Positions 23,511-62,474 of a DNA stretch of 64,000 nucleotides are shown in pieces. The translations under genes were made by a program, and so were the position numbers. Below the pieces are notes generated by a model that worked only from the letters and a program-made list of their open reading frames with translations, was not told where the DNA came from and searched no databases. Position 1 is the first letter of the stretch. Each line of letters begins with the position of its first letter. The stretch covers positions 129,874 through 193,873 of the forward strand of contig JABJKG010000013.1 of assembly GCA_018660415.1 (NCBI GenBank), read 5' to 3'. This DNA comes from a bacterium. Lineage in GTDB: Bacteria > Babelota > Babeliae > Babelales > UBA12409.

Positions 23511-24890
23511 TTATGCTTTGAGTTTCTTTTTTGAATTGAAATAGTAAAAATAATAAGGTTTTTTTATTTTTATTTCTTTTTTTAACAAGCCGGAATTGCA
23601 TATTTGCATTGCCCAGGGGGTATCTTCAGCATAGGAGAGCTCAGGGAAAGCAAACTTGCATGCTATTGATTTTTTTATTGGGTTAAGGTGATTTGGCGGT
23701 CGATAATAAGCTTTTTTGTCATCACTATATTTTTTATATTTTATAGAATGAATAAATGGCTTATCAAATTTATTGTTAACAAAATAATGGCCAGTTAAGC
23801 TAACACAATCGGGATTGTTTAAAATTGCTTTGTAGATGATTTCGATATAGTCTTCAGAAATTTTGTCATCATCATCAATAAATGAAATATATTCCCCGGT
23901 ACAGTCGGCTACTAATGCATTACGCTTAGTTCCTACCGATAAATCAGTGTTATCCCTAAAGAAAACTATTTCAATTTTGTCTTCGAGGCAATTTTTTTGT
24001 ATTTGTTGTTCCAGTTGCGTTAAGAGACTACTAAATGTTTTTTTTCTTGAGTCTAGCGTAGGGATTAAGATGCTCCATTTAATTTGAGAAGTTTGCATAT
24101 AAAAATTATGGTCTCGTCTAGTCCAGAAAGTAACTTTATCTTCATCGTGGAAAGAATCATTATGGCGATAAAGTTCATCCATTTTAGTTGCATCATTACC
24201 ACCCCAAGCTGGATGTCGATGCTCTAATAGAGTTTGATGTACATAGCGTTCTTTTTGTAACAGCTTTGCAATTGCAGTAAATTCATTGTCTGAACAAAGA
24301 GACTTGTAGACGGGGTTATAAAGAAACCCAAATTGTCGGTAATATTTGTTATCCATTATTGAATAGGTAATAATTTCTTCTCCAGCGTGCCCATCATAGA
24401 AGTTTAAAACTCCGTTTCCTGTGGGGAAAAATTTTTGCATGTTCTCAGCAATAACAAGGTCAAACCCTTTCGTAACAGGATACATGTCATCACTTGCAAG
24501 AAGAATAATGTCAAAGTCATCTATATGCTTATCTACATCAGCATTGCATGCAGATATTTTCCCATTATTATTGCCAAAATAATAACTCAAGTTTGGGAAT
24601 TGTTTGAATTTATTTATACTTTTGGGGCAATTCATTGTTTTGTCATCTATATCACAAGAAATAACAAAATGAACAGGAATTTTGTGCGAAAGATGGTGAT
24701 AAAAACGTTTGAGATTTTTGAAAAATAGATCGGGACGTGATCTTGTAGGCCATTTAATCAAAAGGCGTGGTTGGGTGTTATTATGAAAACATACATCGTT
24801 AGAAGAAATTTGTTTAACAATGGGTACAATCCTATAAGGAGTGTATAATCCAATACATAAAAGAATCACAAAAATGGATTTAATTTGCAT
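23511..24890 (-). CDS. Two-domain glycosyltransferase: N-terminal unassigned domain (paralogue of 25709-26512) plus C-terminal GT2
   Basis: The N-terminal half aligns by eye with ORF 25709 (LLIK.PTR.R, ISCD..D..MN, LLASDDM.P, GVLNF.DGH, FGF.Y.P.Y). The C-terminal half has ILIPTLDSR...FIDDDD. Confidence 0.65.
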   Translation of the reverse strand: MQIKSIFVILLCIGLYTPYRIVPIVKQISSNDVCFHNNTQPRLLIKWPTRSRPDLFFKNLKRFYHHLSHKIPVHFVISCDIDDKTMNCPKSINKFKQFPNLSYYFGNNNGKISACNADVDKHIDDFDIILLASDDMYPVTKGFDLVIAENMQKFFPTGNGVLNFYDGHAGEEIITYSIMDNKYYRQFGFLYNPVYKSLCSDNEFTAIAKLLQKERYVHQTLLEHRHPAWGGNDATKMDELYRHNDSFHDEDKVTFWTRRDHNFYMQTSQIKWSILIPTLDSRKKTFSSLLTQLEQQIQKNCLEDKIEIVFFRDNTDLSVGTKRNALVADCTGEYISFIDDDDKISEDYIEIIYKAILNNPDCVSLTGHYFVNNKFDKPFIHSIKYKKYSDDKKAYYRPPNHLNPIKKSIACKFAFPELSYAEDTPWAMQICNSGLLKKEIKIKKPYYFYYFNSKKKLKA

Positions 24891-44022: not shown

Positions 44023-44670
44023 ATGGTTGTTAAAAAAGCATTCTTATTAATTGTTTTTGTGGGTATGACATCGGTCTTACAGGGAGGTCAAGCTCAATCG
44101 CGTCAAGAGTATCCTCTTAATTTTGTTTCAGCACATCATGAAGCTGCTCACTCGGTAGTTGCAGTATTGCTAGCTGATCGCAATAAGCGTTTTGCACTAT
44201 ATGATACTGTCGTTTTTTTGAATGCGTCTTCTGACCAATCTTCAGGAGAAACCCGTTTTTATCCCAAGAGAAAACAAGAATTATTGCCTCGGGAAAATAT
44301 AGAGTCACTGCTTTGTATGATTATAACATTAATGGCAGGGCGTGCAGCAGAAGAAATACTTTTTAATGAGTCAGACTGTTGTTCTGCTGACTATGCACTT
44401 GCGTGTAAGTATGCACGAGATCTTGAATGCTATGCGAATGATTATAACTTTGTTTTTTGTTTTGAAGACCTTATCAAAGATCTCATTGGTGAAGAGTCAA
44501 ACATAAGCATTTACCAAGGGATACAAAGTGATGAAATTGTAAATCGATGCTTAGATGTTTCACGGCAGTTTCTGACTCATCATACAAAGCTTTTGGAAAG
44601 GCTTGCGACTGTTCTTTTGAATGGCAAGCGCCTGCGTGCACAAGAGGTCAAAAACATTCTTGCTCTATAG
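44023..44670 (+). CDS. Stand-alone FtsH-type M41 metalloprotease domain with signal peptide (no AAA+ module)
   Basis: Signal MVVKKAFLLIVFVGMTSVLQG. Motifs AHHEAAHSVVA (HExxH), LMAGRAAEEILF and SADYALACKYARD match the FtsH protease-domain pattern. Confidence 0.65.
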   Translation: MVVKKAFLLIVFVGMTSVLQGGQAQSRQEYPLNFVSAHHEAAHSVVAVLLADRNKRFALYDTVVFLNASSDQSSGETRFYPKRKQELLPRENIESLLCMIITLMAGRAAEEILFNESDCCSADYALACKYARDLECYANDYNFVFCFEDLIKDLIGEESNISIYQGIQSDEIVNRCLDVSRQFLTHHTKLLERLATVLLNGKRLRAQEVKNILAL

Positions 44671-44755
44671 GGAGTATTGATTGCCAAAAACAATCTTATG
44701 GACTATTTTGGTTAGGTTAGATGCGTCTAGTATTAAACTTAAAAAATAGTGATCA

Positions 44756-46306
44756 ATGAAGAAATTAAAAGTTTGTTTTTTGTTTTTTTTCTTAAGCTGT
44801 ATTGTCTATGATGCAGTTCCCGAACATAAATCTTTTTTTGCAGAAGTTGCTAAAGATATCATTGTTGGAACGGCTGTCTTTGCTTCTGTTATGGGGTTAC
44901 TACACGTTTTTAAATCAGTATTGGTTCAAGAGAATGGGCTGACTGAAATTAAGCATTCCAATGATACGTTTGAATCGGTAGCAGGTCTTGATGAGGCTAA
45001 AGAAGAGCTCACAGATATTATTGATTTTCTTAAAAATCCTGAAAAGTTTCAGTTTCTAGGTGCTCATATTCCTCGAGGTATTTTGCTAACGGGTGCGCCT
45101 GGTAACGGTAAAACTTTGCTTGCTCGTGCTATAGCAGGAGAGACAGGTTGTTCTTTTTACAGTGTTAATGGAGCTGACTTTGTTGAGCTTTATACCGGTG
45201 TTGGTCCAGCACGGATGCGTGAACTATATAAAGCAGCACAACAGAATGCACCATCGATTATTTTTATTGATGAAATTGATGCGGTAGCTCGCCATCGAAG
45301 TCGCGATAATAATGATCACGGTGAATATGATAATACGTTATTACAATTGTTAGTGCTCATGGATGGCTTTGAAAAGAACGATAAGCCAGTAGTATTTATT
45401 GGTGCTACTAATTTACAAGAAGCGTTGGATAGTGCACTACTTAGACCTGGAAGGTTTGATCGTATTGTTCATGTCTCGTTACCGGATATAAAAAATCGTA
45501 CAAAAATTTTACAATATTTTGCAGATTCTTTATGTATGGGTCCTAAGGTCAATCTTAAAGAGATAGCACAAACTACGGTCGGATTTTCTGGAGCGCATTT
45601 AAAGAATCTTATGAATGAGGCTGCAATTATTGCATCGCGTAAGAACCGCAAGCTAATAGCACAGGCTGACTTGATAGAGGCTCGAGATAAAACTATTTAT
45701 GGTAAAGCACTTAAGTCTCGTATTCTTACCGAAAAAGAAAAAAAGGTAACAGCTGTGCATGAGTCTGGCCATGCATTAGTGAACTTATTACTCAAAAAAT
45801 ATAGTCTTCCTCTTTATAAAATCACGATTGTGCCGCACGGAGAAGCTCTTGGATTTACTGGTATGTTGACCAATGAAGATCGTTATTCTTGTTCTAAGGA
45901 GGAGCTGGTTGCACAAATCATGATGCTTCTTGGTGGTCGTGCAGCAGAAGAGATAACGTTTGCACAATTATCTACCGGTGCTTCCGATGACTTTAAGCAC
46001 GCATCGCGGCTAGCACGCGAGATGGTTATGATCCACGGCATGTCTGCCGAAATGGGAACCGTATTTTATGATACGACACAGTATAGATTTTCTGAAGAGA
46101 CCCTACAAAAGATTGATAACCAAGTTAAGCGTATCATTCAAAAATGTTATGAGGAGACTCGGCTATTGCTGGCCAAGCATATTCGAGAACTCCAAGTTTT
46201 GTCTGATCGTCTCTTTATAGATGAAACCTTGTATTGTGAGGATGTCGCGACATTATATACCGATGATAGCCTTGCTGACGAGTCTTTCTACCTTCCAGCA
46301 GTTTGA
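44756..46306 (+). CDS. ftsH: FtsH-family ATP-dependent zinc metalloprotease paralogue with a minimal extracytoplasmic loop
   Basis: Walker A GAPGNGKT, Walker B IIFIDEIDA, SRH region LLRPGRFDR, and HESGHAL. Only about 60 aa precede the AAA module. Confidence 0.85.
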   Translation: MKKLKVCFLFFFLSCIVYDAVPEHKSFFAEVAKDIIVGTAVFASVMGLLHVFKSVLVQENGLTEIKHSNDTFESVAGLDEAKEELTDIIDFLKNPEKFQFLGAHIPRGILLTGAPGNGKTLLARAIAGETGCSFYSVNGADFVELYTGVGPARMRELYKAAQQNAPSIIFIDEIDAVARHRSRDNNDHGEYDNTLLQLLVLMDGFEKNDKPVVFIGATNLQEALDSALLRPGRFDRIVHVSLPDIKNRTKILQYFADSLCMGPKVNLKEIAQTTVGFSGAHLKNLMNEAAIIASRKNRKLIAQADLIEARDKTIYGKALKSRILTEKEKKVTAVHESGHALVNLLLKKYSLPLYKITIVPHGEALGFTGMLTNEDRYSCSKEELVAQIMMLLGGRAAEEITFAQLSTGASDDFKHASRLAREMVMIHGMSAEMGTVFYDTTQYRFSEETLQKIDNQVKRIIQKCYEETRLLLAKHIRELQVLSDRLFIDETLYCEDVATLYTDDSLADESFYLPAV

Positions 46307-50641: not shown

Positions 50642-50776
50642 TTTATTAATTCAAAATTAATCTTTTGGATTATTCTGCTAGGCTGTGTATACTAAGTTCC
50701 TAAATATATAGATTGATTTTTTTCTATATATATTTTGTATGTAAAAGTGCAAAAATTTTTAATAAAAAGGATGAAA

Positions 50777-51499
50777 ATGAAGAAGTATATTGTGCTAGTT
50801 TTATTAGCAACAGTCTTAACAGGGTTGGGTAGAATTGTTCGTCGGAGTCCGGATGCACATTACCGGTTGCATCATCCAACTATAGAGAATTTAACATCAG
50901 TTTTTATGGATGCTGTTAACGCCAAAAATCATACTAAGCACAGAAAATTTATTACCTCGATGATGCATGATGAGAAAGCACTTGAGTCAGAGATGGCACA
51001 AGAGTTTGCCGATGCGTTATTGCGGTTAGTTGCTTTGCATGAAGAGCGTGCTCTTGCCCAACAAGAACCGGTAACTCAAATCAAAGAAACTCAAGTTATT
51101 GAATATGTAGAATCTGAAATTGAAGGTGCTGAAAAGGCTAAATTGATTCAGCATATCAATATCGCTAAAAATGCTCTCCGTTCCAAATCGTTTACTCCTG
51201 AAGATCTTATCTTTGCTTTAGCTGCAGTTGGATATCTTACGGGCTTGCTTGAGTCTCCACAGACCAAACAGTTGGTTGATATGGATATCAATGAGTTGGC
51301 AGCAGTCGAACAAAAGATTGTGGCACAAATTGAAAGCTCTACCGACTTGCTGGATGAACTCAAGTATATCAAGGAGGATGACGCTCAGCCGGTATATAAA
51401 TCTAAAAAGAAAGATAGTGTCAGCTATCAAGATCAAACGATTATAACTAGGGAGGGTGATCGAATCTGTACAAAAAAAATTAAACGATCGCACAATTAA
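50777..51499 (+). CDS. Hypothetical membrane-anchored/secreted protein
   Basis: MKKYIVLVLLATVLTGLG, then a helical charged region. No family recognised. Confidence 0.5.
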   Translation: MKKYIVLVLLATVLTGLGRIVRRSPDAHYRLHHPTIENLTSVFMDAVNAKNHTKHRKFITSMMHDEKALESEMAQEFADALLRLVALHEERALAQQEPVTQIKETQVIEYVESEIEGAEKAKLIQHINIAKNALRSKSFTPEDLIFALAAVGYLTGLLESPQTKQLVDMDINELAAVEQKIVAQIESSTDLLDELKYIKEDDAQPVYKSKKKDSVSYQDQTIITREGDRICTKKIKRSHN

Positions 51500-51610: not shown

Positions 51611-53191
51611 ATGAAAAAAATATTAAAGTTAAGTCTTGCGTTATTACTTGTGCTCGGAGCACAAGCGGATTATAACTATACAGGAAAGTCATTCTTTTCT
51701 ACCATTAATCCATCTCAATTAAGTTTCCCTGAACGTGTAGCAAGTTTCAGAACGGATAGACAGTACGCAAAAGAGTGTGGTTGGGGCGCGGCGTTCCAAG
51801 CTGTTGGATTCTGGCAAAGCTCTGGTAGTAGCGATCGCCTAGGTGAGTACTTCATGCCATTTAACAAGTGTGCATTGGTTGCGGGTGAATATGGTTCTAA
51901 CTCTGTTAAAACACATAGTAATGATCTTCTTGCTAACTACTTTGGTGTTTTCACCGATACAGTTAATACTACTGTGGGTGTTCCAAGTCCTAATACATTA
52001 ACCTTCCAAAGTACTATTTCCATGAAACCACAACATAAAGTATATGGTGTTGGGCTTACATGGCAGCAACGACTATTCAAGTGCTTATGGGCTGATGTTT
52101 CTACATCAATCGTTCAAGTTCAAAATAAGATGAACTTCTGTGAAAAAGTACAGAATTCTGGTGGCGGTAACGTTCCAGAAGGTTCATATGCAAACATGAC
52201 TGCAGCTTTTGCAAGTAACCGACTTAACTATGGCCGTATTACCAAGTGTAATATGAAAAAGAGCGGTGTTGCAGATGTAGAGTTCCGTCTTGGGTATGAA
52301 AAAGACCTTTGTGATTGCTGTGGCGTTGGTGGCATCTATGTTGGTGGTTTAATTCCAACAGGTAACAAGCCTGGTGATACCAAACTGAGTACTGCTACAA
52401 CAACTAGTTCTACTACAAAACCTTGTGATTATGGTCGTTATATGTTCCAACCAATCGTTGGTAATAACCATCACTGGGGAGTTCTTTTTGGATCTTATGG
52501 TCGCCTTGAAATAATTAACAGCAACAGTGGTTGCCCTCTAACGCTGATGACTGACTGTACTGCTAAGTATCTTGCTAGTAACAAGCAAAAACGTTCATTT
52601 GATTTAAAAGGTAAGCCTTGGAGTCGTTACATTCATACATGGAACAACTCAGCAGCTGTTGCAACTGACTTGACTCTAGCTAACCTTGTACCATTAATTA
52701 ACTACACAACTCTTAATTCAAATGTTCGACCAGGCTGGTCTCTTGATTGGAACAATGCATTGCATTACCAATACAAATGCTTCGCGTTTGAAGTTGGCTG
52801 TAATGTGTATGCGCGTGAAGGTGAAAGCATCTCATGCTGCCAAAAAATCCAAGGTGGTATTGGACTTGCTGATCTTTATGAGTGGGCTGATGAAGATACT
52901 GTAGTAACTGCAGGATTAGAAACCATTACTCGTGATAACTGGGGTAACGCTACCGATGTTGATATTGATGGTAATGATGTTTATCTTACTGTTGCTCAAG
53001 CTGATATTGATTATATGTCAGCAGCAGCGCCTCCTGTATTTAACGGTACTATTTATGGTGCTGTTACTTATGATTGGAACAACTGTAAAGTTCCTGCTTT
53101 CATTAGCGGTGGTGGTTCTTATACTTTCACTAGTGATAATGCAGCACTCAATAACTGGGTTGCTTGGGTTAAAATTGGTATAGCCTTTTAA
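51611..53191 (+). CDS. Putative Cys-rich outer-membrane beta-barrel (porin/MOMP-like)
   Basis: Signal MKKILKLSLALLLVLGAQA, alternating aromatic/polar strands, and a C-terminal ...WVKIGIAF ending in Phe. About 16 Cys, including CDCCG and SCCQ. Confidence 0.55.
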   Translation: MKKILKLSLALLLVLGAQADYNYTGKSFFSTINPSQLSFPERVASFRTDRQYAKECGWGAAFQAVGFWQSSGSSDRLGEYFMPFNKCALVAGEYGSNSVKTHSNDLLANYFGVFTDTVNTTVGVPSPNTLTFQSTISMKPQHKVYGVGLTWQQRLFKCLWADVSTSIVQVQNKMNFCEKVQNSGGGNVPEGSYANMTAAFASNRLNYGRITKCNMKKSGVADVEFRLGYEKDLCDCCGVGGIYVGGLIPTGNKPGDTKLSTATTTSSTTKPCDYGRYMFQPIVGNNHHWGVLFGSYGRLEIINSNSGCPLTLMTDCTAKYLASNKQKRSFDLKGKPWSRYIHTWNNSAAVATDLTLANLVPLINYTTLNSNVRPGWSLDWNNALHYQYKCFAFEVGCNVYAREGESISCCQKIQGGIGLADLYEWADEDTVVTAGLETITRDNWGNATDVDIDGNDVYLTVAQADIDYMSAAAPPVFNGTIYGAVTYDWNNCKVPAFISGGGSYTFTSDNAALNNWVAWVKIGIAF

Positions 53192-53435: not shown

Positions 53436-54302
53436 ATGAAAAGACAAATGAAATTAATGTTAGTGTTGCTAACAGCAGGGATGTCACAAGCTGCGTTAGG
53501 TGAAGAAGTAAAATATGATTTAACCACTGTTAGCGGTTTGTCTCGGGCGTTTGATGCTGCTTATGCAAAAAATATGCATTCACCTGCTGCACGACATACA
53601 TTTAGAGTAAGCATGGGTGGTAACTCTAAAAACCCTGGAACTACTTTTAACAAAGCTATAAAAGCTGTTTTTGCAAAACAGAAAGGTGGGTCGGCAGCGG
53701 CTGCAGTAGCAGACAAAAGGGCAGCTTTAGCAGCTGCTAAGAAAACATCTGATGCAACGATAGCTCAGCTTAAAGCGTTAGTTAAGGACGGTCAGCCTGA
53801 CATAAAATCTATAGGTTTAAGTGGTTTAGTTGATCGGTATGGTAACAAGAACCGACCAAAAGATATCAACGCATATATAAATGGTATTCATACAGCAGGT
53901 GTAATAGATGGTCTTAGAAGATCTGAAGTAGGTAAAAAGGCTACTCAAGGAATAAGTGACCGACAATATGAGGACTTATTTCATGATCTCTATGAAAAAG
54001 AAATAGAGCAGAGGTTCAATGCTTATGAAGGATTAAAAACAGAAGTTTCTGACCATGAAGAAGCTGTAGAGGCTCTGCAAGCGCAGATTAAAGATTTAGA
54101 AGCTCAGAATAAAGCTACTTTAGGACATCTTACAGAGTTGAGAAAGGTTATGAGTGAGCAGGCTGGAATCATTTCTGCCAATGTTAATGCAAAAGGTGGA
54201 AAAACAAAGTGGGAAGCTGCTCTTAAGGTTCTAGAAAACCCTACTGCTGCTATGCCTGCGCAAGCAGAGGCAGGTAAGAATGAAATGGACGACGTTGACT
54301 AG
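53436..54302 (+). CDS. Hypothetical secreted Ala/Lys-rich coiled-coil protein
   Basis: Signal MKLMLVLLTAGMSQAALG and a heptad-like C-terminal half. Confidence 0.6.
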   Translation: MKRQMKLMLVLLTAGMSQAALGEEVKYDLTTVSGLSRAFDAAYAKNMHSPAARHTFRVSMGGNSKNPGTTFNKAIKAVFAKQKGGSAAAAVADKRAALAAAKKTSDATIAQLKALVKDGQPDIKSIGLSGLVDRYGNKNRPKDINAYINGIHTAGVIDGLRRSEVGKKATQGISDRQYEDLFHDLYEKEIEQRFNAYEGLKTEVSDHEEAVEALQAQIKDLEAQNKATLGHLTELRKVMSEQAGIISANVNAKGGKTKWEAALKVLENPTAAMPAQAEAGKNEMDDVD

Positions 54303-54336
54303 GTTAATTTAACGTCTAGTTTTATAAGTACGATGT

Positions 54337-54366
54337 AAGGAGGCCCAAAAGGGCCTCCTTTTTTGT
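54337..54366 (+). terminator. Rho-independent terminator
   Basis: Stem aaggaggccc, loop aaaa, stem gggcctcctt, followed by ttttgtt. Confidence 0.85.
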
Positions 54367-54445
54367 TGGTATTGGTCTGAGGTTTTATCATTACTACTTG
54401 ATTGACCTTTATATGTCCCTCAACTCTTGATTTCTATGTGTAAGA

Positions 54446-54465
54446 TTTATTACTATTATAAATAA
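54446..54465 (+). promoter_or_regulatory. Conserved upstream element TTTATTACTATTA..TAAATAA (copy 1)
   Basis: It ends exactly 31 nt before the ATG at 54497. A second copy lies at 57903-57925 with the same 31-nt spacing to the ATG at 57957. Confidence 0.45.
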
Positions 54466-54496
54466 AAACACAAGGTGTCGTAAAATAGGGATCAAG

Positions 54497-56440
54497 ATGA
54501 AAAAGTTAGTTATAGCATTAGTGCTGGTGGGAGTATGGATACAGGGAGCTTGTGGGGGTAGCTTTGAACCATTGAGACAAGAGTATCTTCGTATCATGGC
54601 AGAAGAGCCTAAAGCGATGATGAGTGTAAATATTCCACAATTAGATGGTTTACAAGCTGATATTGTTAGCTTGATAGGAGACGTAAGCATAAGCTCGGAG
54701 AAAGATCAAAAAATCCTATCCAGTCTTCAAATAAACCTCAAAACATTATCTAATCTATTGCGTAACCTTAAAAGACGCAAAGAAGAGATTGAAGGGTATG
54801 CCAAGCAGCAGCTTGTGGTTGCTAGGCAGGGTAAGCATGATGCAGAGATGCAATTAGCGGCCTTGCAAAGCAACTATGATCGAGCATTGGTGCAGATTGC
54901 GGGAGATCGCGAGGATGTCGCCGGAGCAGTTCTTGAACAATATAAGGGGGCTAGTCCTCAACAAAAAGCCAAGTTAGAAGAAAAGGTAGCAGAAGCTAAT
55001 AAGATGGTGGTCGATGGAGCGGAGCTGGTTTTACATCAAGCACGTGAGGGTGATAAGAAGGAAGAAGATATTTTCAAGGCGGCAAGTCAGATTGGACAAG
55101 CCCAGCAGATGAATGAAGCCCTGATTCAGGGTAAGAGTGATGATATTGAAGAACTTCAAAGAGAAGTAGCTCATGTAGAAGAGCAGCGCGATCAAGCAGC
55201 AGAAGAAGCAGAGGGCTTTAGCGAACAGCTTGATGAGGCACAAATTAAAGTAGAGCGATTGAAAAAAGAAGTAGCTGCCATCGAAAAGAGAGCTCTCCTA
55301 GCAAAAACCGAAGAAGAACGGGCTCGTTTAGCAGAACAAGCAGAACGAGAGAAAGAAGCTCTTAAAAAAGCCGAAGCAGTAGCTGCTGATTATCGAGAAA
55401 AAATTCAACATCGACAAGGATTAATAGATGAGCTTGAGCAAGAAAAGAAAAGAATCGAAGCTAATATCGAAGGCTTACGTAGCGATGTTGAAAATCTCAA
55501 AAATCGAAACGAGGAGCTCCAGCGGCTTCTTGAAGAGCTTTCTTTAGAGTCGAGTAAAATTGCGACTATTAGAAGCACAGTGGCTAATCTTTATAAGCAA
55601 GAAGTAGCCTTAGCGGGAATTGATGCGACTTATGTACGATTAAAAGCATTAGAAGGTATTGAGGATATTCCTGAGGATGTTAGAGAAGAAGCACACGCTA
55701 TGATTACCAGGTCGCGATTAGATCAAGGAGAAAAAGATCGACTCTTACATGAGTTGGCAGAGCCTCTTAGTGAAAAGCAGCGAGAAGAGCTTGCAGAACT
55801 TACTAAAGCAAGACGAGCAGTAACATTACATCAAATTAGAAACGCTCATACTACTATCAAGTCATTATTAGAAGATAAAGAGCGTGCAATTCAAGAACAA
55901 GTAGCGCCTACGCAGTCTACATGGCAGCGTTGGTGGTCTGGTGGTTATGATAAGGCCAATATAAAAGATGAAGCCTTGAGAGGTGATGTTTCTCTCTTAG
56001 AGCGCGAGGTAGAGCTTGGAAAAGCATTAAGGCAGGTTGACTATAATGCTACAGAGGCTATGCAAAAGTTCCCACACCTCTTTGATAAGAACCAGGTTAT
56101 GGGCATGCGTCCTGAAGCTGGAGGTTTTGCTCTGGAAGGACGCCAACACCTTCAGATTGAAGCTCCTGCTGGAGAGGAAGTGGTCGTTGAACAAGTAGCG
56201 CCAGGTCGCATGGCACAGTTGGCGTTGTGGGGATCTCGAGTGAAAGGTTGGGGAGCAGCAGCCGGTCGTTTTGCCAAGGATGTCTTTACACCAGGTGCTC
56301 CAGAAACGGACATTCTCAAGATCGTAGCTAATGCCAAACAAGAAGTACTTGATCGAGAGCATCGTGAGCAAGAGCAAGATCGTCAGGATCAAGACGAAAG
56401 AGAGGCTGAGTGGGAAAGAATGCGCCAAGAGCAAAGATAG
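54497..56440 (+). CDS. Secreted coiled-coil protein, family member 1
   Basis: Signal MKKLVIALVLVGVWIQGACG. About 300 aa of the C-terminal half are clearly paralogous to 56449-57804 (LYKQE.ALA.ID...RLKALE, VAPTQSTW..WWSG.YDK, GRMAQLALWGSR.K.WG.AAGRFA). Confidence 0.75.
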   Translation: MKKLVIALVLVGVWIQGACGGSFEPLRQEYLRIMAEEPKAMMSVNIPQLDGLQADIVSLIGDVSISSEKDQKILSSLQINLKTLSNLLRNLKRRKEEIEGYAKQQLVVARQGKHDAEMQLAALQSNYDRALVQIAGDREDVAGAVLEQYKGASPQQKAKLEEKVAEANKMVVDGAELVLHQAREGDKKEEDIFKAASQIGQAQQMNEALIQGKSDDIEELQREVAHVEEQRDQAAEEAEGFSEQLDEAQIKVERLKKEVAAIEKRALLAKTEEERARLAEQAEREKEALKKAEAVAADYREKIQHRQGLIDELEQEKKRIEANIEGLRSDVENLKNRNEELQRLLEELSLESSKIATIRSTVANLYKQEVALAGIDATYVRLKALEGIEDIPEDVREEAHAMITRSRLDQGEKDRLLHELAEPLSEKQREELAELTKARRAVTLHQIRNAHTTIKSLLEDKERAIQEQVAPTQSTWQRWWSGGYDKANIKDEALRGDVSLLEREVELGKALRQVDYNATEAMQKFPHLFDKNQVMGMRPEAGGFALEGRQHLQIEAPAGEEVVVEQVAPGRMAQLALWGSRVKGWGAAAGRFAKDVFTPGAPETDILKIVANAKQEVLDREHREQEQDRQDQDEREAEWERMRQEQR

Positions 56441-56448
56441 GAGTGACG

Positions 56449-57804
56449 ATGAACAGGGTTATATTAATTTTACTAGGATCCATGATAATGCAGGGGGTAC
56501 ATGCCCAAAGTGAGGAGCTCCGTATTATGCGTGAGCAGGTGGAACATGAACAGTTGATCAACAATAAGCGTAACGAGCTTAGAGAGCTTGAGCAGCAAAA
56601 AAATGTTCTCTTGCAAGATCATAGAGCAAAACTTGCTCAAGCAACTCAAGACTTTAATGAAAGGACTGAAGAGCAGCAACGCAACGTGAGAAAATTGCAA
56701 CAATTGGCTGCTGCTAGCCAAAGAGGCAACACACCAGACGCATTTAGGGATAGGCAGAACGTTGAAAGAGCAAATGAAAGGCTAGAGGCGATAGAGGAAG
56801 AAGAGCTGGCTTATCGTCAAACTAGAATAAGTGAGTGGACCCATGAAACAGCTCAAATAGATAGTAGGATTCGTGTCTTACAGCAGGAGATTGACACCCT
56901 TACAAGGGACAGTGAAGGGCGCGCCCGACACTTAGAAGGCTTTTCTTTAGACTCTAGTAGTATGGGTACGATTAAAACTACTGCTGCAAAGCTTTATAAA
57001 CAAGAGCAGGCTTTAGCAAAGATTGATGAAACTTTAATACGCTTGAAAGCGCTTGAGGCGATTAGGTCTATTTCTGAAGAGGTAAAAGCAGAAGCTCAGT
57101 CGATAATTCAAAGATCTCGCTTAGAAGACCCTGAAAAACAACACCTTTTATATGAATTGGAACATCCCTTATCAGCCGAACAACAAGTAGAGCTTACAAG
57201 GTTGAATAAAGAACGACGCGAGATAACGTTGTTTCAGATTAGAACTGCCCACGCTAATATCAAATCGTTGTTGAAAGATAGAGAGCGTGCGATTCAAGAA
57301 TTGGTTGCGCCGACTCAATCGACATGGGAGCACTGGTGGTCAGGTAGTTATGATAAGGATAATATTGCCGATGAAGGATTGAAAGGTGATATTTCTTTCT
57401 TAGAACAAGAGGTAGAGCTTGGAAAAGCATTGAGAAAGGTTGGCTATAATGCTACCAAAGCTATGAACAAGTTTCCAGAGCTGTTTAATATAGATCAAGA
57501 AGATGAATTTTTTGATATTGAGCCGCCGACTGTAGCGCCTAAGCCTGAGGCTGTAGAACCAGGACGTATGGCACAACTAGCGTTATGGGGATCTCGAATA
57601 AAAAGATGGGGTACTGCTGCAGGTCGTTTTGCACAACAGCTTCTAACACCAAGTGACCCTGAGAAAGACATTGTTAAGATTGTAGCTCATGCTCAGCAAG
57701 AGCTGCGTGATAGGGAGCATCGAGAGCTGGAGTATGAACGTCAAGAAGAGGAAGAAAGAGAAGCTAGATGGGAAAGTGTGCGTCAAGAAGGAGCAGAGAG
57801 CTAG
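56449..57804 (+). CDS. Secreted coiled-coil protein, family member 2
   Basis: Its AGGAG site overlaps the upstream stop codon. Signal MNRVILILLGSMIMQGVHA. Paralogy as described for member 1. Confidence 0.75.
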   Translation: MNRVILILLGSMIMQGVHAQSEELRIMREQVEHEQLINNKRNELRELEQQKNVLLQDHRAKLAQATQDFNERTEEQQRNVRKLQQLAAASQRGNTPDAFRDRQNVERANERLEAIEEEELAYRQTRISEWTHETAQIDSRIRVLQQEIDTLTRDSEGRARHLEGFSLDSSSMGTIKTTAAKLYKQEQALAKIDETLIRLKALEAIRSISEEVKAEAQSIIQRSRLEDPEKQHLLYELEHPLSAEQQVELTRLNKERREITLFQIRTAHANIKSLLKDRERAIQELVAPTQSTWEHWWSGSYDKDNIADEGLKGDISFLEQEVELGKALRKVGYNATKAMNKFPELFNIDQEDEFFDIEPPTVAPKPEAVEPGRMAQLALWGSRIKRWGTAAGRFAQQLLTPSDPEKDIVKIVAHAQQELRDREHRELEYERQEEEEREARWESVRQEGAES

Positions 57805-57902
57805 TTTAAATGTTTGACGTTTTGTAAGAAAAACCAGAATGGAGCCTTTAGTTAACAGAAGTTGAGGAAAAAAAGAGCAACTGTTGACTAAGCGCATGAG
57901 AG

Positions 57903-57925
57903 TTTATTACTATTAGAATAAATAA
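57903..57925 (+). promoter_or_regulatory. Conserved upstream element (copy 2)
   Basis: TTTATTACTATTAGAATAAATAA. The first 13 nt are identical to 54446-54458, and there is a 3-nt insertion. Confidence 0.45.
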
Positions 57926-57956
57926 GATTTTGTTTTGTTTAAAATGGAGAAGAAAA

Positions 57957-58826
57957 ATGAAGAAGTTTATAGGGTTCCTTGTTTTTATGGGAACGATTCT
58001 ACCAGCAGTGTCTTTTGGTGATCATGAGCCATTAAGGCAGAGATATCTTGAAATTCTAAGAGAAGAGGGTGTAGCTACAGCACATGGGGACCTTGAGAGA
58101 TTTGCGCAGGTAGAGCAGGCGATTCCGCAATTAATAACTGATATTCAAGCTGCTGCACCAGGAGATAAACGTATGTTAGGGATACTTCAGATAACACCAG
58201 CAAGATTAACTTCTTATAACCAAGAAGTACAAAAACGACAACGGGCTGCAGAAGAGTTACAATTAGTTGTTGCTCAGCGTAATGCTGTAGAAGAGGAAAG
58301 ACAGAGGCGACTTCTCGAAGAGGCCGAAGAACAACGACGAGCTGACGAAGAGAGAGAGGCGCGGGATTATGAAGACAGGCAGAATGAAGCCGAAAAGCAA
58401 CGACGAGCTGACGAAGAGAGAGAAGCTGAAGAAGAGCGACGAGCTGAAAAAGAAGCAGACTGGGTAAGGCAGCAAGAAAAAGTTCGAGAAGAAAGATTTG
58501 TTAATCCTCGAGAAGAGCATGATCGACAAGCTGCAGAGCGGGCAATAAGAGCTAAGGAAGTACAACAAGAAATAATAAGAGAACACGAGGACACAGGGGC
58601 ACATGCTTCTTGGTTCAGTAATTTTGGTCGTGGGGCTATGGATCAATTTGATGGCGGAGAAGGAATGTGGGATCGCGACGACTCAGATGATGAGCCATTT
58701 CCAGCACAAGAAGAAGTGCAACCTGACCAAGAAGTAGCTGAAGAAGAGGTGGTTGAGGAACCGGCTAGGGAAGAAGTAGAAGAGGCATTTGAAGAGCATG
58801 CTGCACCTTTCGATCCATTTAGCTAA
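57957..58826 (+). CDS. Secreted coiled-coil/charged-repeat protein, family member 3
   Basis: Signal MKKFIGFLVFMGTILPAVSFG. The post-signal motif HEPLRQRYLEILREE matches FEPLRQEYLRIMAEE of member 1. It also contains RRADEEREA repeats. Confidence 0.7.
   Translation: MKKFIGFLVFMGTILPAVSFGDHEPLRQRYLEILREEGVATAHGDLERFAQVEQAIPQLITDIQAAAPGDKRMLGILQITPARLTSYNQEVQKRQRAAEELQLVVAQRNAVEEERQRRLLEEAEEQRRADEEREARDYEDRQNEAEKQRRADEEREAEEERRAEKEADWVRQQEKVREERFVNPREEHDRQAAERAIRAKEVQQEIIREHEDTGAHASWFSNFGRGAMDQFDGGEGMWDRDDSDDEPFPAQEEVQPDQEVAEEEVVEEPAREEVEEAFEEHAAPFDPFS
58332..58460 (+). repeat. Intragenic 66-nt tandem repeat
   Basis: caacgacgagctgacgaagagagaga occurs at 58332 and 58398 (26/26 identical). A degenerate third copy starts near 58434. 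Confidence 0.8.
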
Positions 58827-58849
58827 AATTCAATAGAAACTAAAAAAAA

Positions 58850-58886
58850 GCAGAATAAGGGCGTTGGCTCTTATTCTGCTTTTTTG
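58850..58886. terminator. Bidirectional terminator
   Basis: Stem gcagaataag / cttattctgc flanked by aaaaaaaa and tttttt, between convergent genes. Confidence 0.8.
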
Positions 58887-58902
58887 TTTTAAAAGTCTCT
58901 AC

Positions 58903-59562
58903 TTAAGGGAATTGTTTGATTCCTAGTTTTTTCCAGTCCTCATCAAACTGTTTTATGCCTTGCTTAGTGAGGGGATGCTTGGTGGCCTTTTCTAAAATAT
59001 CGGTTGATACGGTTGCAACATCGACTCCAGCTTCAATTGCTTCATGGAGATGTTCCACGGTTCGCAATGATGCTGCAAGGATCCCCGTAGAAAAACCATA
59101 TGAGTCTTTCATATACTTAATCTCATGGAGCATTGAGATCCCATCTTCATCAATATCGGCAAGCCGTCCAATAAAGGGTGATATATATGTCACTCCCAGC
59201 TTGGACATGAATAAGCTTTGGATGAGTGTGAACACGAGCGTGATATTTAACTTTACCTGTTCAGCGACCAGTTTTTGGATAATAGGATAGTATTCTTCGG
59301 TGCATGGTATTTTTACGAGTATATTTGGGCCGAGAGCAGCGATTTTTTTTGCTTGGTCGTAAACCGCCTGAGGTTCTTTCTCGGTCACCTCGACGCTAAT
59401 TTCTCCGCTTGGGAGGAGATTCATAATGTCCTTAATGACCTTAACAGGATCGCCTCCTTCTTTACTCAGATGGCTTGGGTTGGTCGTAACACCGTCAATG
59501 ATACCCGTATCGGACCATTTTTTAATGTCAGAGACCTTGGCGGTATCGAGAAATATTTTCAT
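58903..59562 (-). CDS. tal: Transaldolase, short TalC / fructose-6-phosphate aldolase subfamily
   Basis: MKIFLDTA....IKKW...GIIDGVTTNPS and the Schiff-base Lys context (ILVKIP). About 219 aa. Confidence 0.9.
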   Translation of the reverse strand: MKIFLDTAKVSDIKKWSDTGIIDGVTTNPSHLSKEGGDPVKVIKDIMNLLPSGEISVEVTEKEPQAVYDQAKKIAALGPNILVKIPCTEEYYPIIQKLVAEQVKLNITLVFTLIQSLFMSKLGVTYISPFIGRLADIDEDGISMLHEIKYMKDSYGFSTGILAASLRTVEHLHEAIEAGVDVATVSTDILEKATKHPLTKQGIKQFDEDWKKLGIKQFP

Positions 59563-59572
59563 TACAGTTCCT

Positions 59573-60667
59573 TTAACTTTGTTTAAGAGCGGTCATATAA
59601 ACCGTTTCATATTCTTTAATTTCATCGGTGTTGAAGTAGTCCATAATAAAATCGTGGGCACCTTGGGCGAGGGCTGCTCGGTATCTGGGATCGTTATAAA
59701 AGGTGCGTGCTGCATTATACAGATCGATCGGTACTGATAAAAAGCATTGAAGGCCTGTCCGTCCTTCTTTGATAAAGATTGTGTTGGATGGGATTGCTGA
59801 TGCGATGATGGGTTTTTGCATGTACATAGCTTCGATAACAGCAAGGCTTTCTGCTTCTGACTGTGAACAGTTGATAGCGACGTTACAGCCTTTGTAGGCT
59901 TGCCAGATATCATCATGTGGTAATGGACCTAGGTACCGGATCCAGTCCTTGTCCTTAATGGCGTCCTGGAACTGGGTAAAGTATTCCTGATCGAGAATGC
60001 TTCCAACAAAGGCTAATTTAACGTTCGGATGTTGTTCATGGAGTTTTTCTAAGAGGTGTATGGGCATGAGATTATTTTTGACTGGTCTGATCCCGGCAAC
60101 GTGTAGGTAGATAAAATCATCCTCATTAAAATTGAATCGCTCTCGAAAATCATAGTGATTGGCATCACAGTGAGGTTCTCCGCGTCTGATTATGGAGCAT
60201 TGTTCCTTTAGTTCAGGATGTTTTTTTATTAACGCGTTCATTCCCGTATTATTGAGTCCCGTGTTGTTAAACGTTATTAAGTGTGAAGCCTTAAGGATTG
60301 TATCCTCAGTTTGAGCAGCCTTTGCAGGATCTAATAAGCATTGATTATAGTCGGTGCCACTGAGTGTTAAGACATAGGGAATATGAAGATGGTGAGCTAT
60401 TGCCACAGCTCGGCGGCTTTTAAAGCCATGAAATGCATGGATAATATCGGGCTTGAATTCAAGAATGGTTTCGATGTTAATAGCATCAGGTGTGAATACT
60501 AAGGTTTGATGTCCCAGTTGTTCAAGGCCAGTGGTGAGGCGATGAATATCAATACTATTACCTGTGACTGTAGGCAGTTTTGTGGGCGTGATAAATAGAA
60601 TATTCAGTGAAGATGATTGTTGAAAGATGATCGATAGAATAAGAAAGATTAATTTTTTATACGCCAT
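59573..60667 (-). CDS. GT4-like (GT-B) glycosyltransferase with N-terminal hydrophobic segment
   Basis: N-terminal KLIFLILSIIFQQSSS followed by the NILFITP strand. C-terminal SQSEAESLAVIEAMYMQKPIIAS. Confidence 0.6.
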   Translation of the reverse strand: MAYKKLIFLILSIIFQQSSSLNILFITPTKLPTVTGNSIDIHRLTTGLEQLGHQTLVFTPDAINIETILEFKPDIIHAFHGFKSRRAVAIAHHLHIPYVLTLSGTDYNQCLLDPAKAAQTEDTILKASHLITFNNTGLNNTGMNALIKKHPELKEQCSIIRRGEPHCDANHYDFRERFNFNEDDFIYLHVAGIRPVKNNLMPIHLLEKLHEQHPNVKLAFVGSILDQEYFTQFQDAIKDKDWIRYLGPLPHDDIWQAYKGCNVAINCSQSEAESLAVIEAMYMQKPIIASAIPSNTIFIKEGRTGLQCFLSVPIDLYNAARTFYNDPRYRAALAQGAHDFIMDYFNTDEIKEYETVYMTALKQS

Positions 60668-60749: not shown

Positions 60750-62474
60750 CTAATCTCTATTTTGTCCGTAGGTAATAAGTGCATTTTCAAGGCGATCCAC
60801 TTCTTCACGATGGGGGTCACTGACTGTACGGGTACTGTAAAGACTGGTATCTCGAGTGTTGAGTGCTTTTCTATAGTCTTCAGTCAATGCACGGAAATCT
60901 GCGTTTGTATCATATGAAGTTGTGTTTCGCTCTAAGGCGCTGACATCAACGGGCCATTGAAATTCACGAGATGCTTGTGAACGACCTTTTTTACGAATAA
61001 GCCTTCGTTGATTGGCACCTAACCTTTGAACCTTTTTAAGAACTTTAGGTCTTATTTCACCTATTTTTTCTGCATTAGCTTCAATGACCGTTTGAATCCA
61101 ATCAGGGTTTCCAAAACTGTGTTTTTGATGTTTTTTTACCGGTGAAGACCCTGTAAGACGATCAGTACTAGCTTTTTGAGCACGCCATATTTCTATTAAT
61201 GCATCATACTCAGTAGTACGTTGTTGTCGTCTTTGTTCTAATATACCTACTGAGTCTCCATCAGATTCAGAATCAGTATCCTCTTCAAGTTGAGGGCTAG
61301 GTAGCTCTTGTCCGAGTCCTAAGGCTGGTCTGACTTCTTCCTCTTCTTCTTCAGATGTACTATCGTCATCAGAACTAGTGTCTGAAACTGAATCTCCATC
61401 GGATTCAGAGTCAGTACCCTCTTCAAGTTGAGGGCTAGGTAGTTCTTGCCAGACTTCTTCCTCTTCTTCATCAGAACTAGTGTCTGAATCGGAACCATCT
61501 AGCGACAAGGTTTCTTCAACTTCTTCGCCTTCTCGAGCGCCGCCTCCTCTAATACCACTCCATAATCCTTCAAAGAGTCGTAGCAACCCTTCAATGTTGA
61601 TGGAATAGCTATAACTAGCACCTCCAGCGCCTGCAGCTATAAGAGCTGCAATAATGGCTTTTTTTCTATTTTTTCTTGCTTCAGCTTTTACGAACTCAGC
61701 ATGTGATATAGCTGCTTGCTCATCGAGCATTCTGTCCATAGCTTCTATTTCAGCGAGTTCGGCTATCGCTTTTTCTTCTAATTTTTTGAGTCTTGCGAAA
61801 GCTTGTTCTTTTTTCCATTGCTTATACTTATTCCAGCCATAGTATGATCCAGCAGCAAGTGCGATAGCTCCTAATGCCCACAAGGTTTTTGGAATTTTGC
61901 GGGAAACTTCTGCTACAGATTGTGTAGATTCAACTGATGGCACTGGGAATGGTATGTTGGTAGTCGGATTAGGGAACACTAACTCGGCTGGCATTTTGTT
62001 AGGGAATGTGACAGGTGGAATCATATAAGAAGGTGGCAATTGTTTGTGGAGTGCTGAAATCGCAGTTCCTAATGGTGGAAGTATTGCCGGAGTCTGTTTG
62101 GATATAGTTTCGGCTATCGTTTTAGCTACTGGTGTGTTCACCTTAGTAAAGGTTCCTTTTCCAATTTCTCGGGTCAATAGCTGAATGTCTTCCATTGTCA
62201 CTTTTTGTAGATTTTCTTTTTTAAGGAAGTTAGCAACCTCTCTTAAAGTGGTTTTGTTAGGAAATTTGGCAGCATTCTTTTGGTAGGTGAAATATTTAGG
62301 AAAGATTTCAGGAAGGTGCCAGACTCGTGCAGGCGAGTTTTGGGCCCATGGCCGCATAGCTCTACCTCCGGGTAAAACCGTAAAATCAACTTTAGGGAGT
62401 TTAGGTATCCCAAGTAGCGTATTGCCTGATAATGCAAACAATAGGACTAAAAGACCTTTTAATATTTTTATCAT
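60750..62474 (-). CDS. Hypothetical secreted/membrane protein with acidic Ser/Asp/Glu tandem repeats
   Basis: Signal MIKILKGLLVLLFALSG and two internal hydrophobic segments. It contains repeats of LPSPQLEE.TDSESDGDSV. Confidence 0.65.
   Translation of the reverse strand: MIKILKGLLVLLFALSGNTLLGIPKLPKVDFTVLPGGRAMRPWAQNSPARVWHLPEIFPKYFTYQKNAAKFPNKTTLREVANFLKKENLQKVTMEDIQLLTREIGKGTFTKVNTPVAKTIAETISKQTPAILPPLGTAISALHKQLPPSYMIPPVTFPNKMPAELVFPNPTTNIPFPVPSVESTQSVAEVSRKIPKTLWALGAIALAAGSYYGWNKYKQWKKEQAFARLKKLEEKAIAELAEIEAMDRMLDEQAAISHAEFVKAEARKNRKKAIIAALIAAGAGGASYSYSINIEGLLRLFEGLWSGIRGGGAREGEEVEETLSLDGSDSDTSSDEEEEEVWQELPSPQLEEGTDSESDGDSVSDTSSDDDSTSEEEEEEVRPALGLGQELPSPQLEEDTDSESDGDSVGILEQRRQQRTTEYDALIEIWRAQKASTDRLTGSSPVKKHQKHSFGNPDWIQTVIEANAEKIGEIRPKVLKKVQRLGANQRRLIRKKGRSQASREFQWPVDVSALERNTTSYDTNADFRALTEDYRKALNTRDTSLYSTRTVSDPHREEVDRLENALITYGQNRD
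61252..61495 (-). repeat. Intragenic ~138-nt tandem repeat (about 2 copies with indels)
   Basis: The 59-nt cores at 61252-61310 and 61390-61448 are nearly identical. Shorter shared blocks (gacttcttcctcttcttc, tcatcagaactagtgtctgaa) follow each core. Confidence 0.8.

Follow-up and report, generated by a model that had tools for sequence, protein, structure and literature searches.

A narrow family of predicted exported helical proteins, found as three tandem paralogues in a marine member of Dependentiae

Introduction

CrvA and CrvB of Vibrio derive from one ancestral exported filament protein that was duplicated, a domain then being lost in one copy; both proteins are periplasmic, and Crv homologues are reportedly restricted to Vibrionaceae (bioRxiv 10.1101/2020.02.20.954503). 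The locus described here is a tandem array of three genes from a marine member of Dependentiae (candidate division TM6). It is carried by a stretch of 64,000 nucleotides (nt) of contig JABJKG010000013.1 (assembly GCA_018660415.1); this whole 64-kb stretch is called the window. The members of the array are designated m1, m2 and m3 (Table 1). The array and the CrvA/CrvB pair have several features in common: adjacent homologous genes for exported filaments or rods, duplication of one ancestral gene, partition of domains among copies, copies that are not interchangeable, and a narrow taxonomic range. The analogy is by description only: no Pfam domain is in common, and the Dependentiae family is all alpha-helical and is built of other modules.

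Dependentiae obligately parasitise protists and have reduced genomes; the only secretion route detected in them combines Sec with type II secretion (PMC6561590, PMC4378268, PMC4776705). A secretion system of type II (T2SS) is reported to be core in TM6 (PMC4776705, PMC4378268), and neither a type III nor a type IV system is on record for this group (PMC4378268). TM6 envelopes are described as degenerate and as missing many canonical components (PMC4776705). Particles of Chromulinavorax destructans contain dense, dark-staining periplasmic material, and 44% of the coding sequences (CDS) of this species carry signal peptides (PMC6561590). Dependentiae ORFans (proteins with no recognised homologues) bearing signal peptides are commonly taken as effectors (PMC6561590, PMC4378268). 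The trio resembles the signal-peptide ORFans of C. destructans and Babela massiliensis (same phylum, Sec signal, no domain, lineage-restricted). These ORFans are a heterogeneous predicted class (PMC6561590, PMC4378268), whereas the trio consists of syntenic, core-like genes with homologues in four lineages only, according to an exhaustive search with the C-terminal module. Almost no member of this widespread phylum has been cultured, and close to half of Dependentiae proteins are exported without known function.

Two further classes are relevant. Coiled-coil-rich effectors of intracellular bacteria such as Legionella and Chlamydia have long coiled coils, evolve fast and expand as paralogues; their secretion signals are of type III or type IV, and a bilobed hydrophobic domain marks Inc proteins. 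The members of the trio differ in having a predicted cleavable Sec signal and no internal hydrophobic domain. Single alpha-helix segments rich in E, R and K form the second class. Residues ~117-180 of m3 are made of E/R-rich units (EEQRRADEEREA...) without a heptad hydrophobic pattern; the resemblance is compositional only.

Results

Paralogy of m1, m2 and m3

On alignment evidence, m1, m2 and m3 are genuine paralogues that belong to a single, very narrow family. m1 and m2 are 48% identical over 418 amino acids (aa) (BLASTP, composition-adjusted; E 4e-114). Identity reaches 63% across the 281 columns of the C-terminal module (C-module), where the alignment contains each of the long identical motif runs listed in the preliminary description. 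At the DNA level, identity is just 73-76% across 236-300 nt and long identical runs are absent; recent gene conversion between m1 and m2 is ruled out.

m1 and m3 are 31% identical over the first 119 aa (BLASTP, E 1e-13). Without the signal peptides, the alignment still has a Smith-Waterman score of 113, where composition-preserving shuffles average 31 (z=15) and 0 of 5000 of them reach 113. The EPLRQ.YL motif reported earlier just after the signal peptide holds, and the likeness spans the whole N-terminal module (N-module) of ~100 aa. By contrast, the EEREA-type tails proposed as a link of m3 to m1 and m2 reflect charge bias (638/2000 and 296/2000 shuffles reach the score). Homology of a Trp motif between m3 and m1/m2 was ruled out by shuffling. 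BLASTP of m2 against m3 gives nothing significant. A hidden Markov model (HMM) of the N-module built from the orthologues alone scores m1 at 34 bits and m3 at 4.7 bits; the tie of m3 to the family therefore runs through m1 only. The m2 signal peptide is weakly similar to that of m1 (p about 0.01). In profile-profile comparisons, the N-module is unrelated to the C-module and to the small signal-peptide proteins of the YDLTT type encoded nearby.

The array is recovered in independent assemblies (m1 on at least 21 contigs, m2 on 18). The gene junctions are spanned by DNA contigs from other runs, and no rearrangement joint was found. At least 17 seawater or marine metagenome runs contain the window sequence, many of them at full k-mer coverage. 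The source of the window is a marine member of Dependentiae: the record of one orthologue names TM6, that of a neighbouring protein names Candidatus Babeliales, and seawater metagenomes carry the window sequence. Chlamydiae, also considered as the taxon, were rejected on these records. The seawater population is essentially clonal, with window-identical sequences across runs and few contigs that are 90-95% identical. Contigs of the latter kind in seawater run X13 match m1 (55009-55129) and the spacer between m3 and tal with part of tal (58849-58984), so a second related strain or species carries the locus.

Protein architecture and predicted structure

In each of the three proteins the N-terminus is basic and leads into a hydrophobic core and a cleavage region of small residues (Kyte-Doolittle (KD) 17-residue maxima: m1, 2.22; m2, 1.59; m3, 2.12). 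The shared Sec-type signal peptides given in the preliminary description are thus borne out by N-terminal hydropathy, as predictions of the KD scan. No internal hydrophobic segment (window above KD 1.4 outside the signal peptide) was found in m1, m2 or m3.

The family is characterised by a signal peptide, the N-module, a coiled coil and a C-module with the consensus VAPxQ(S/T)xxQxW(W/L)SGxY ... YN(A/V) ... PxxF ... SRxxx(L/M)xxW ... (L/I)xKI(V/L/I). m1 has the complete set (Table 1). m2 has all features but the N-module: its signal peptide (MNRVILILLGSMIMQGVHA followed by Q; mature start QSEE) leads into a shorter coiled coil, the C-module and a charged tail. m3 combines the signal peptide with an N-module that is homologous with residues 22-119 of m1, and continues with an E/R-rich charged helix and an acidic tail; the C-module is absent. 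Mature m3 contains 20.8% E and 12.5% R (isoelectric point 4.5).

A crude heptad scan covers a fraction of 0.32 of the residues of m1 (66-104 and 207-373), 0.23 of those of m2 (124-202 and 258-287) and 0.00 of those of m3; the m1 signal is well above that of shuffles. The description of the array as three coiled-coil proteins therefore stands for m1 and m2 and fails for m3.

The AlphaFold2 model of m1, computed from a six-sequence alignment, is entirely alpha-helical (mean predicted local distance difference test (pLDDT) score 80, predicted TM-score (pTM) 0.46). Its long helices span residues 81-135, 189-268 and 272-354 (55, 80 and 83 residues). The N-module and the C-module are confident and the linker 531-600 is of low confidence. 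The C-module modelled alone gives pLDDT 73 and pTM 0.57. From these long helices, and from a heptad signal above shuffles, m1 is probably an elongated helical rod with a distinct helical module at either end.

Database and membership tests

The preliminary description found no recognisable family, and searches of Pfam, NCBIfam, PHROGs, PDB sequences and Foldseek (PDB, BFVD) bear this out. In Pfam-A, the best m1 matches are DUF6547 (16.6 bits, cut-off 27) and DUF7803 (14.5 bits); m2 and m3 have no match. In NCBIfam, the sole m1 match is SMC_prok_B (21.8 bits, cut-off 567), and it falls on the coiled coil (residues 157-371). PHROGs gives no match, and a PDB sequence search with the profile gives E 0.24 or worse. 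Foldseek searches with the full m1 and C-module models against PDB, and with the C-module against BFVD, return nothing at E <0.1. The highest-ranking matches (colicin Ia, SMC/Rad50 arms, alpha-pore-forming toxins, Smac, syntaxin; TM-scores 0.1-0.38) look like what any long-helix model attracts. The family is undescribed, and neither sequence nor fold gives a clue to function.

Membership of four known classes was rejected. SMC/Rad50-type ATPases: no ATPase domain is found in Pfam, matches to SMC, MukB and Rad50 arms have E >0.3 and TM <=0.2, and a signal peptide is present. Bacterial lipoproteins: the lipobox [LVI][ASTVI][GAS]C is not matched, since m1 (...WIQGAC) has Q at -3; no Cys occurs in or after the signal peptide in m2, m3 or any of the three orthologues. 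Beta-barrel proteins or autotransporters: the models are wholly alpha-helical, and the C-termini are charged helices without a terminal aromatic beta-signal. Chlamydia-type Inc proteins: the bilobed hydrophobic domain (~40-60 residues) was not found in m1, m2 or m3.

Family range and synteny

An exhaustive search of 1.84 billion representative proteins with the C-module profile HMM gives only 5 matches (P0001-P0005): m1, m2 and three others. These three are 634, 660 and 639 aa long (E 5e-22, 1.5e-20 and 1e-11). The orthologues P0003, P0004 and P0005 align end to end with m1 at 30%, 30% and 23% identity. P0003 is OGB96991.1 (hypothetical protein A3F06_01405) of candidate division TM6 bacterium RIFCSPHIGHO2_12_FULL_36_22. 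P0004 comes from an eastern tropical North Pacific (ETNP) oxygen-deficient-zone assembly (GCA_002998485.1), and P0005 from run DRR337538. A protein neighbouring an orthologue is recorded as Candidatus Babeliales. Word-index searches with m1, a two-sequence C-module profile and a five-sequence profile found only the window's own proteins among up to 8000 candidates, which coiled-coil words had filled. Scans of GTDB representative genome contigs with the C-module profile and with the neighbouring M3 peptidase found nothing. A scan of metagenome contigs found just the two already known contigs, and a scan of viral contigs found nothing.

Gene order is the same at all three related loci: FtsH-like, UvrB, M3 peptidase, a signal-peptide protein of ~250 aa, an outer-membrane-type protein of ~530 aa, small signal-peptide proteins, and the m1 orthologue. 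On the 3' side follow a convergent tal, a protein of ~500 aa and leuS. OGB96991.1, P0004 and P0005 resemble m1 in being collinear with it from the signal peptide to the C-terminal helix and in occupying the same slot; two of the three also share the promoter element and the preceding terminator (see below). They differ from the array in being single-copy, without partial paralogues of the m2 or m3 type; all are unannotated.

P0004 has an extra C-terminal extension (L006 11900-11983, L006 being its locus): YVVPATVVASGLGAYMLG-KKIRRR, a hydrophobic segment with a basic tail and a borderline mean KD of 1.54. This tail resembles a membrane anchor or a sorting signal. The spacer between the P0004 tail and tal measures 240 nt in L006; the METK locus has 14 nt.

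History of the array

Each relative has a single copy with tal immediately after it, so m2 and m3 are additions in the lineage of the window. The comparison with the orthologues identifies m1 as the full-length ancestral form (~640 aa). m2 corresponds to a copy minus the promoter and the N-module. m3 corresponds to a copy that kept the conserved promoter, signal peptide and N-module, the remainder being replaced by the E/R-rich helix and the acidic tail. The upstream regions of m1, m3 and the orthologues align; m3 therefore inherited the regulatory region along with the signal peptide and N-module. A plausible route is repeated tandem duplication, with complementary internal or terminal deletions afterwards.

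The duplication is later than the split from the related lineages, because m1 and m2 are 63% identical (C-module) as against ~30% to any orthologue. It is nevertheless old, because synonymous sites are saturated (synonymous divergence (dS) 1.2-2.0). Frameshifts are absent. For m1 and m2, nonsynonymous divergence (dN) over dS is 0.40/1.69 overall (~0.23), 0.25/1.24 (0.20) in the C-module core and 0.18/2.0 (0.09) in the part with the Trp motif. A test for positive selection had been suggested in the preliminary description; pairwise dN/dS points to purifying selection on both m1 and m2 (dN/dS about 0.1-0.35).

Transcription and translation signals

A strong intrinsic terminator closes the upstream unit (Table 1) and isolates the array as a separate transcription unit. 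In four runs, the RNA contigs covering the upstream unit end at 54331-54338, and the terminator is also present at the matching place in orthologous loci.

Promoter-like elements precede m1 and m3. That of m1 matches 8/12 positions by the scan criteria and so was absent from the scan list; it was read from the sequence. That of m3 matches 9/12. The composite pattern of -35 hexamer, N18 and -10 hexamer occurs exactly twice in the 64-kb window (0 expected). The promoter 13-mer occurs twice exactly and once with one mismatch (0.33 expected). It is also found upstream of the orthologues in loci L003 and L006 (9947-9959 in each), once per relative locus of ~20 kb and at that position. It was not found in the most divergent locus, nor in the promoters of neighbouring exported-protein genes. 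The full element, TTTATTAC[TA]ATTA[TG]AA..TAAATAA, follows a TTG[AC].T hexamer at a constant distance of 13 nt; it precedes m1, m3 and two orthologous genes and has no other occurrence in the window or in the loci of those orthologues. The alignment of the sequences upstream of m1, m3 and the METK and PVBE orthologues runs from the -35 hexamer through TTTATTAC[TA]ATTA to the ribosome-binding region TAAAATGGAGA. The element is kept although the encoded orthologues are only about 30% identical to m1; it may be an operator or define a special promoter class. The m3 element is a duplicated copy of the element of m1 and the orthologues.

The ribosome-binding site (RBS) of m2 overlaps the m1 stop, as the preliminary description stated: TAG (56438-56440) lies inside TAGGAG, 5 nt before ATG 56449. 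m2 has no promoter of its own. The RBS overlap and the RNA contigs that cross the junction indicate that translation of m1 and m2 is coupled. In public gene calls, m2 begins at ATG 56482 (440 aa, P0002), inside the signal peptide; ATG 56449 restores the full signal peptide.

The hairpin between the convergent m3 and tal is likely a bidirectional terminator. It was read from the sequence, its 10-nt loop having kept it off the scan list. RNA contigs of m3 end at 58814-58863. An Rfam scan of the window found no RNA family.

Expression in seawater

Seven marine metatranscriptomes contain contigs identical to the locus and covering all three genes. In run X22, RNA depth is 71 for the upstream unit of the 526-aa and 288-aa genes, 51 for m3, 12-21 for m1/m2 and 0-5 for uvrB, the M3 peptidase gene and leuS. 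DNA runs are flat over the same region (depth 1-7), so the signal of the RNA runs reflects RNA and not DNA carry-over. m3 is the most transcribed of the trio; all three members are well above the flanking housekeeping genes.

The start of one RNA contig, at 54471, lies 15 nt beyond the -10 box of m1. The m1/m2 junction is crossed by RNA contigs 55821-56697, 55676-57004 and 55081-57846; m1 and m2 are therefore co-transcribed. In one run, an RNA contig extends from m1 through m3 to the final hairpin. In run X22, RNA depth rises from ~9 (intergenic read-through contig) to 51 (m3 contig): m3 is transcribed from its own promoter plus some read-through.

In two independent runs, m3 RNA contigs begin at 57951/57952, right after adapter sequence; this point lies 38 nt past the predicted -10 box, with the ATG another 5-6 nt on, and coincides with a 13-nt tandem repeat (AAAATGAAGAAGA, 57941-57965, 1.9 copies). 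The start may be either an assembly break or a genuine 5' end of the RNA.

Discussion

Proposed envelope assembly and possible host-directed effectors

Envelope or surface rod assembly, with domains partitioned among the paralogues, is the reading preferred here, at a probability of roughly 0.45. After Sec export, the proteins would stay in the cell envelope (periplasm or surface) as abundant, non-enzymatic structural or tethering parts. m1 would form a long rod carrying binding modules at both of its ends; m2 would have the rod and C-end in common with it, and m3 the N-end. Each partial paralogue would join, extend or cap the m1 assembly, or take the same partners. That m2 and m3 plug into the assembly or partners of m1 is suggested by the retention of one end of the rod in each. 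Coupled translation would set the m1:m2 ratio, and the common promoter element would co-regulate m1/m2 with m3.

Several lines of evidence argue for this placement. All genes from the M3 peptidase gene through m3 encode N-terminal signal or anchor segments; the rough probability of seven such genes in a row at a base rate of 44% is 0.003. The gene is fixed beside the best-conserved and most-transcribed gene, of outer-membrane type, in four lineages ranging from groundwater to open ocean. After N-terminal export, the P0004 tail would act as an inner-membrane anchor with the body of the protein in the periplasm. Transcript abundance of the trio is of the order of that of the outer-membrane protein gene (m3 51 vs 71; m1/m2 12-21). 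The reported degeneracy of TM6 envelopes (PMC4776705) and the dark periplasmic material of C. destructans particles (PMC6561590) count on the same side.

Several points weigh against it. Envelope placement is deduced from context, expression level and the P0004 tail, whose mean KD of 1.54 is borderline. No lipobox, beta-signal, transmembrane anchor or known peptidoglycan-binding domain was found in m1, m2 or m3. The structural models (pTM 0.46-0.57) were built on alignments of just 5-6 sequences, and hetero-assembly of m1 with m2 and m3 is conjecture. The orthologues are 23-31% identical, as against 58-77% for tal and 63-73% for the outer-membrane-type protein, and the duplication is lineage-specific; such fast divergence and lineage-specific duplication are also typical of host-interface or effector proteins.

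Secreted host-directed effectors are a serious, if less likely, alternative. After Sec export, the proteins would exit by T2SS or outer-membrane vesicles and act on protist structures through coiled-coil or charged-helix contacts, the paralogues being a diversification under host pressure. The lifestyle of Dependentiae as obligate protist parasites, Sec/T2SS as their sole detected route and the usual reading of their signal-peptide ORFans as effectors fit this view (PMC6561590, PMC4378268, PMC4776705). So do the low identity of the orthologues relative to their neighbours (23-31% vs 58-77%), the lineage-specific duplication and domain remodelling, and the failure to find an envelope-retention motif in m1, m2 or m3. 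The E/R-rich helix and acidic disordered tail of m3 resemble eukaryote-like interaction regions. Several points speak against effectors. Coiled coils diverge quickly whatever the function, and a signal peptide tells little at a base rate of 44% of CDS (PMC6561590). In four lineages, from groundwater to ocean, the gene is inherited vertically at a fixed position in a cluster of envelope type; pairwise dN/dS values are far lower than 1; one orthologue has a C-terminal tail like a membrane anchor. Searches of Pfam, NCBIfam, Foldseek and PDB give no eukaryote-like domain and no match to known effectors. The preliminary description had proposed surface or host-directed (effector-like) proteins. The surface option is kept; the effector option is possible but is the less well supported of the two, given the fixed cluster position, the P0004 tail and the purifying dN/dS.

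A more specific form of the envelope reading is speculative and, as a whole, unlikely. It supposes an envelope or surface scaffold specific to Dependentiae (a "periskeleton" or particle coat), possibly located in the dark periplasmic layer of Chromulinavorax. The marine rod would have been split into a co-assembling set of m1 (full rod), m2 (rod and C-end) and m3 (N-end cap). A dedicated operator or promoter element, better conserved than the proteins, would drive the set and would imply stage-specific control by a regulator (infectious particle vs replicative stage).

Other explanations

It is very improbable that the trio is a set of alpha-helical pore-forming or colicin-like toxins whose helical hairpins insert in a target membrane. 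Colicin Ia and tripartite alpha-pore-forming toxins (Smh, Ahl, XaxAB, NheA) are among the top Foldseek rows, but at E above 0.1, TM 0.1-0.3 and root-mean-square deviation 14-60 A. For the classes ClyA, Hbl, Nhe, Smh, XaxAB and colicin Ia, the values are E 0.24-2.2, TM <=0.3 and 14-32 A. No hydrophobic hairpin or head domain was found in m1, m2 or m3, and Pfam gives no match to the Hbl, ClyA or colicin families.

The possibility that m1 alone is functional, m2 and m3 being truncated, decaying duplicates heading for loss, is largely refuted and keeps a slight chance. m2 and m3 each lack a module present in every orthologue, and the relatives manage with a single gene. The duplication is old (dS 1.2-2.0 or saturated), yet the open reading frames (ORFs) are intact and dN/dS is 0.1-0.35. 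m2 retains a proper signal peptide and a coupled RBS; m3 retains the conserved promoter and an RBS and tops the trio in RNA depth; sequences are identical over many independent seawater assemblies.

A likeness due to low-complexity or coiled-coil charge bias, with no real family, fits the EEREA-type tails (no better than shuffles) and the swamping of word-index homologue searches by coiled-coil words, but is refuted to near certainty by BLASTP of m1 against m2 (E 4e-114, taking in the non-repetitive motifs VAPTQSTW..WWSG.YDK and GRMAQLALWGSR), by the N-module shuffle test (z=15) and by the exhaustive profile search (orthologues at E 1e-11 to 5e-22 among 1.84e9 proteins, all at one genomic position).

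Significance of the locus

The locus is a tractable case, with a clear ancestral form and a natural domain partition showing independently acting modules. The conserved upstream DNA element could lead to a regulator. Envelope scaffolds would help to explain how particles are built in a phylum with a degenerate Gram-negative envelope; effectors would be among the few conserved host-manipulation candidates of marine Dependentiae. The family is undescribed and very narrow, with a clear history of domain partition and an unusually conserved promoter element, in a phylum of which little is known; tandem exported helical paralogues in host-dependent bacteria are familiar. At present, this is a well-documented uncharacterised family and not a surprising mechanism.

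Table 1. Features of the array and its surroundings (window positions unless residues are given; GT, glycosyltransferase family)
Feature	Position	Strand	Details
m1	54497-56440	+	647 aa; ORF
m2	56449-57804	+	451 aa from ATG 56449; ORF itself opens at GTG 56410
m3	57957-58826	+	289 aa from ATG 57957; ORF itself opens at TTG 57930
m1 signal peptide (predicted)	residues ~1-21		
m1 helical N-module	residues 22-135 (~115 aa)		
m1 heptad coiled coil	residues ~207-373 (~170 aa)		
m1 helical C-module	residues ~345-530 (~190 aa, WWSG motif)		Holds VAPTQSTWQRWWSG motif
m1 linker, low-confidence	residues 531-600		Flexible; holds Trp-rich amphipathic PGRMAQLALWGSRVKGWGAAAGRFA motif
m1 charged terminal helix	residues 606-646		
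m3 internal tandem repeat	58319-58453	+	EAE(E/K)QRRADEEREA units; two 41-nt copies, 90% identical
Intrinsic terminator	54337-54360	+	GC-rich 10-bp stem then T run; closes upstream unit (526-aa and 288-aa genes)
m1 promoter-like element	54427-54466	+	TTGATT-N18-TACTAT (54427-54456), within TTTATTACTATTATAAATAA
m3 promoter-like element	57884-57926	+	TTGACT-N18-TACTAT (57884-57913), within TTTATTACTATTAGAATAAATAA
m2 ribosome-binding site AGGAG	56439-56443	+	Overlaps m1 stop; sequence caaagaTAGGAGtgacgATG
Hairpin with A run and T run	58842-58885	.	Stem 58850-58859/58870-58879, 10-nt loop; between convergent m3 and tal
241-aa signal-peptide protein	50774-51499	+	29-45% identity to relatives
526-aa outer-membrane-type protein	51611-53191	+	63-73% identity to three related TM6 loci; region's best conserved
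288-aa signal-peptide protein	53436-54302	+	Shares only N-terminal YDLTT-type motif with relatives
574-aa protein	60750-62474	-	N-terminal signal-like segment, further moderately hydrophobic stretches
GT4-type glycosyltransferase	59573-60667	-	Between tal and 574-aa gene
Two consecutive FtsH-type ORFs	44023-46306	+	215 aa (partial Peptidase_M41); 516 aa (AAA, AAA_lid_3, Peptidase_M41)
Polysaccharide-biosynthesis region	about 10000-36000		UDP-ManNAc dehydrogenase-like gene, several GT2 and GT4 glycosyltransferases

Neighbouring genes

The preliminary description placed the array within a run of orphan secreted proteins. N-terminal signal-like segments are indeed encoded on both sides; orphan status does not hold, orthologues being present in related genomes. 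The upstream genes for the 241-, 526- and 288-aa proteins have the same order in all related loci and the highest RNA depth in the region.

The 526-aa protein has a signal peptide, 3.2% Cys and a C-terminus (...WVKIGIAF) with a beta-barrel signature; it has no match in Pfam or NCBIfam. Its gene has the top RNA depth in all seven metatranscriptomes and is detected in 16 RNA runs. The protein is a candidate major outer-membrane protein of the Dependentiae clade.

Between the outer-membrane-type gene and m1 lies a slot for small signal-peptide proteins, which start with (Y/F)(D/N)L.T..GL after the signal peptide. In relatives (L003 8848-9861; L006 8875-9861), the slot contains two tandem paralogues of 93-165 aa, with which the 288-aa protein of the window shares the motif alone (E 0.02). 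It looks like a further place, besides the array, where exported helical proteins have duplicated in tandem.

Downstream, the GT4-type gene is not found at that position in any of the three related loci and is therefore a lineage-specific insertion. The 574-aa protein has an acidic S/D/E-rich region with the duplicated unit ELPSPQLEE[GD]TDSESDGDSV. Only its C-terminal ~150-180 aa are kept in relatives (26-30% identity), and its RNA depth is similar to that of m1/m2.

The pair of FtsH-type ORFs is conserved in related loci. A low-GC stretch at 22-28 kb (0.32-0.33) contains two ORFs of ~460 aa (22100-23509, + strand; 23511-24890, - strand). NCBIfam gives no match for either, and Pfam none for the 22100-23509 ORF, which was the one scanned.

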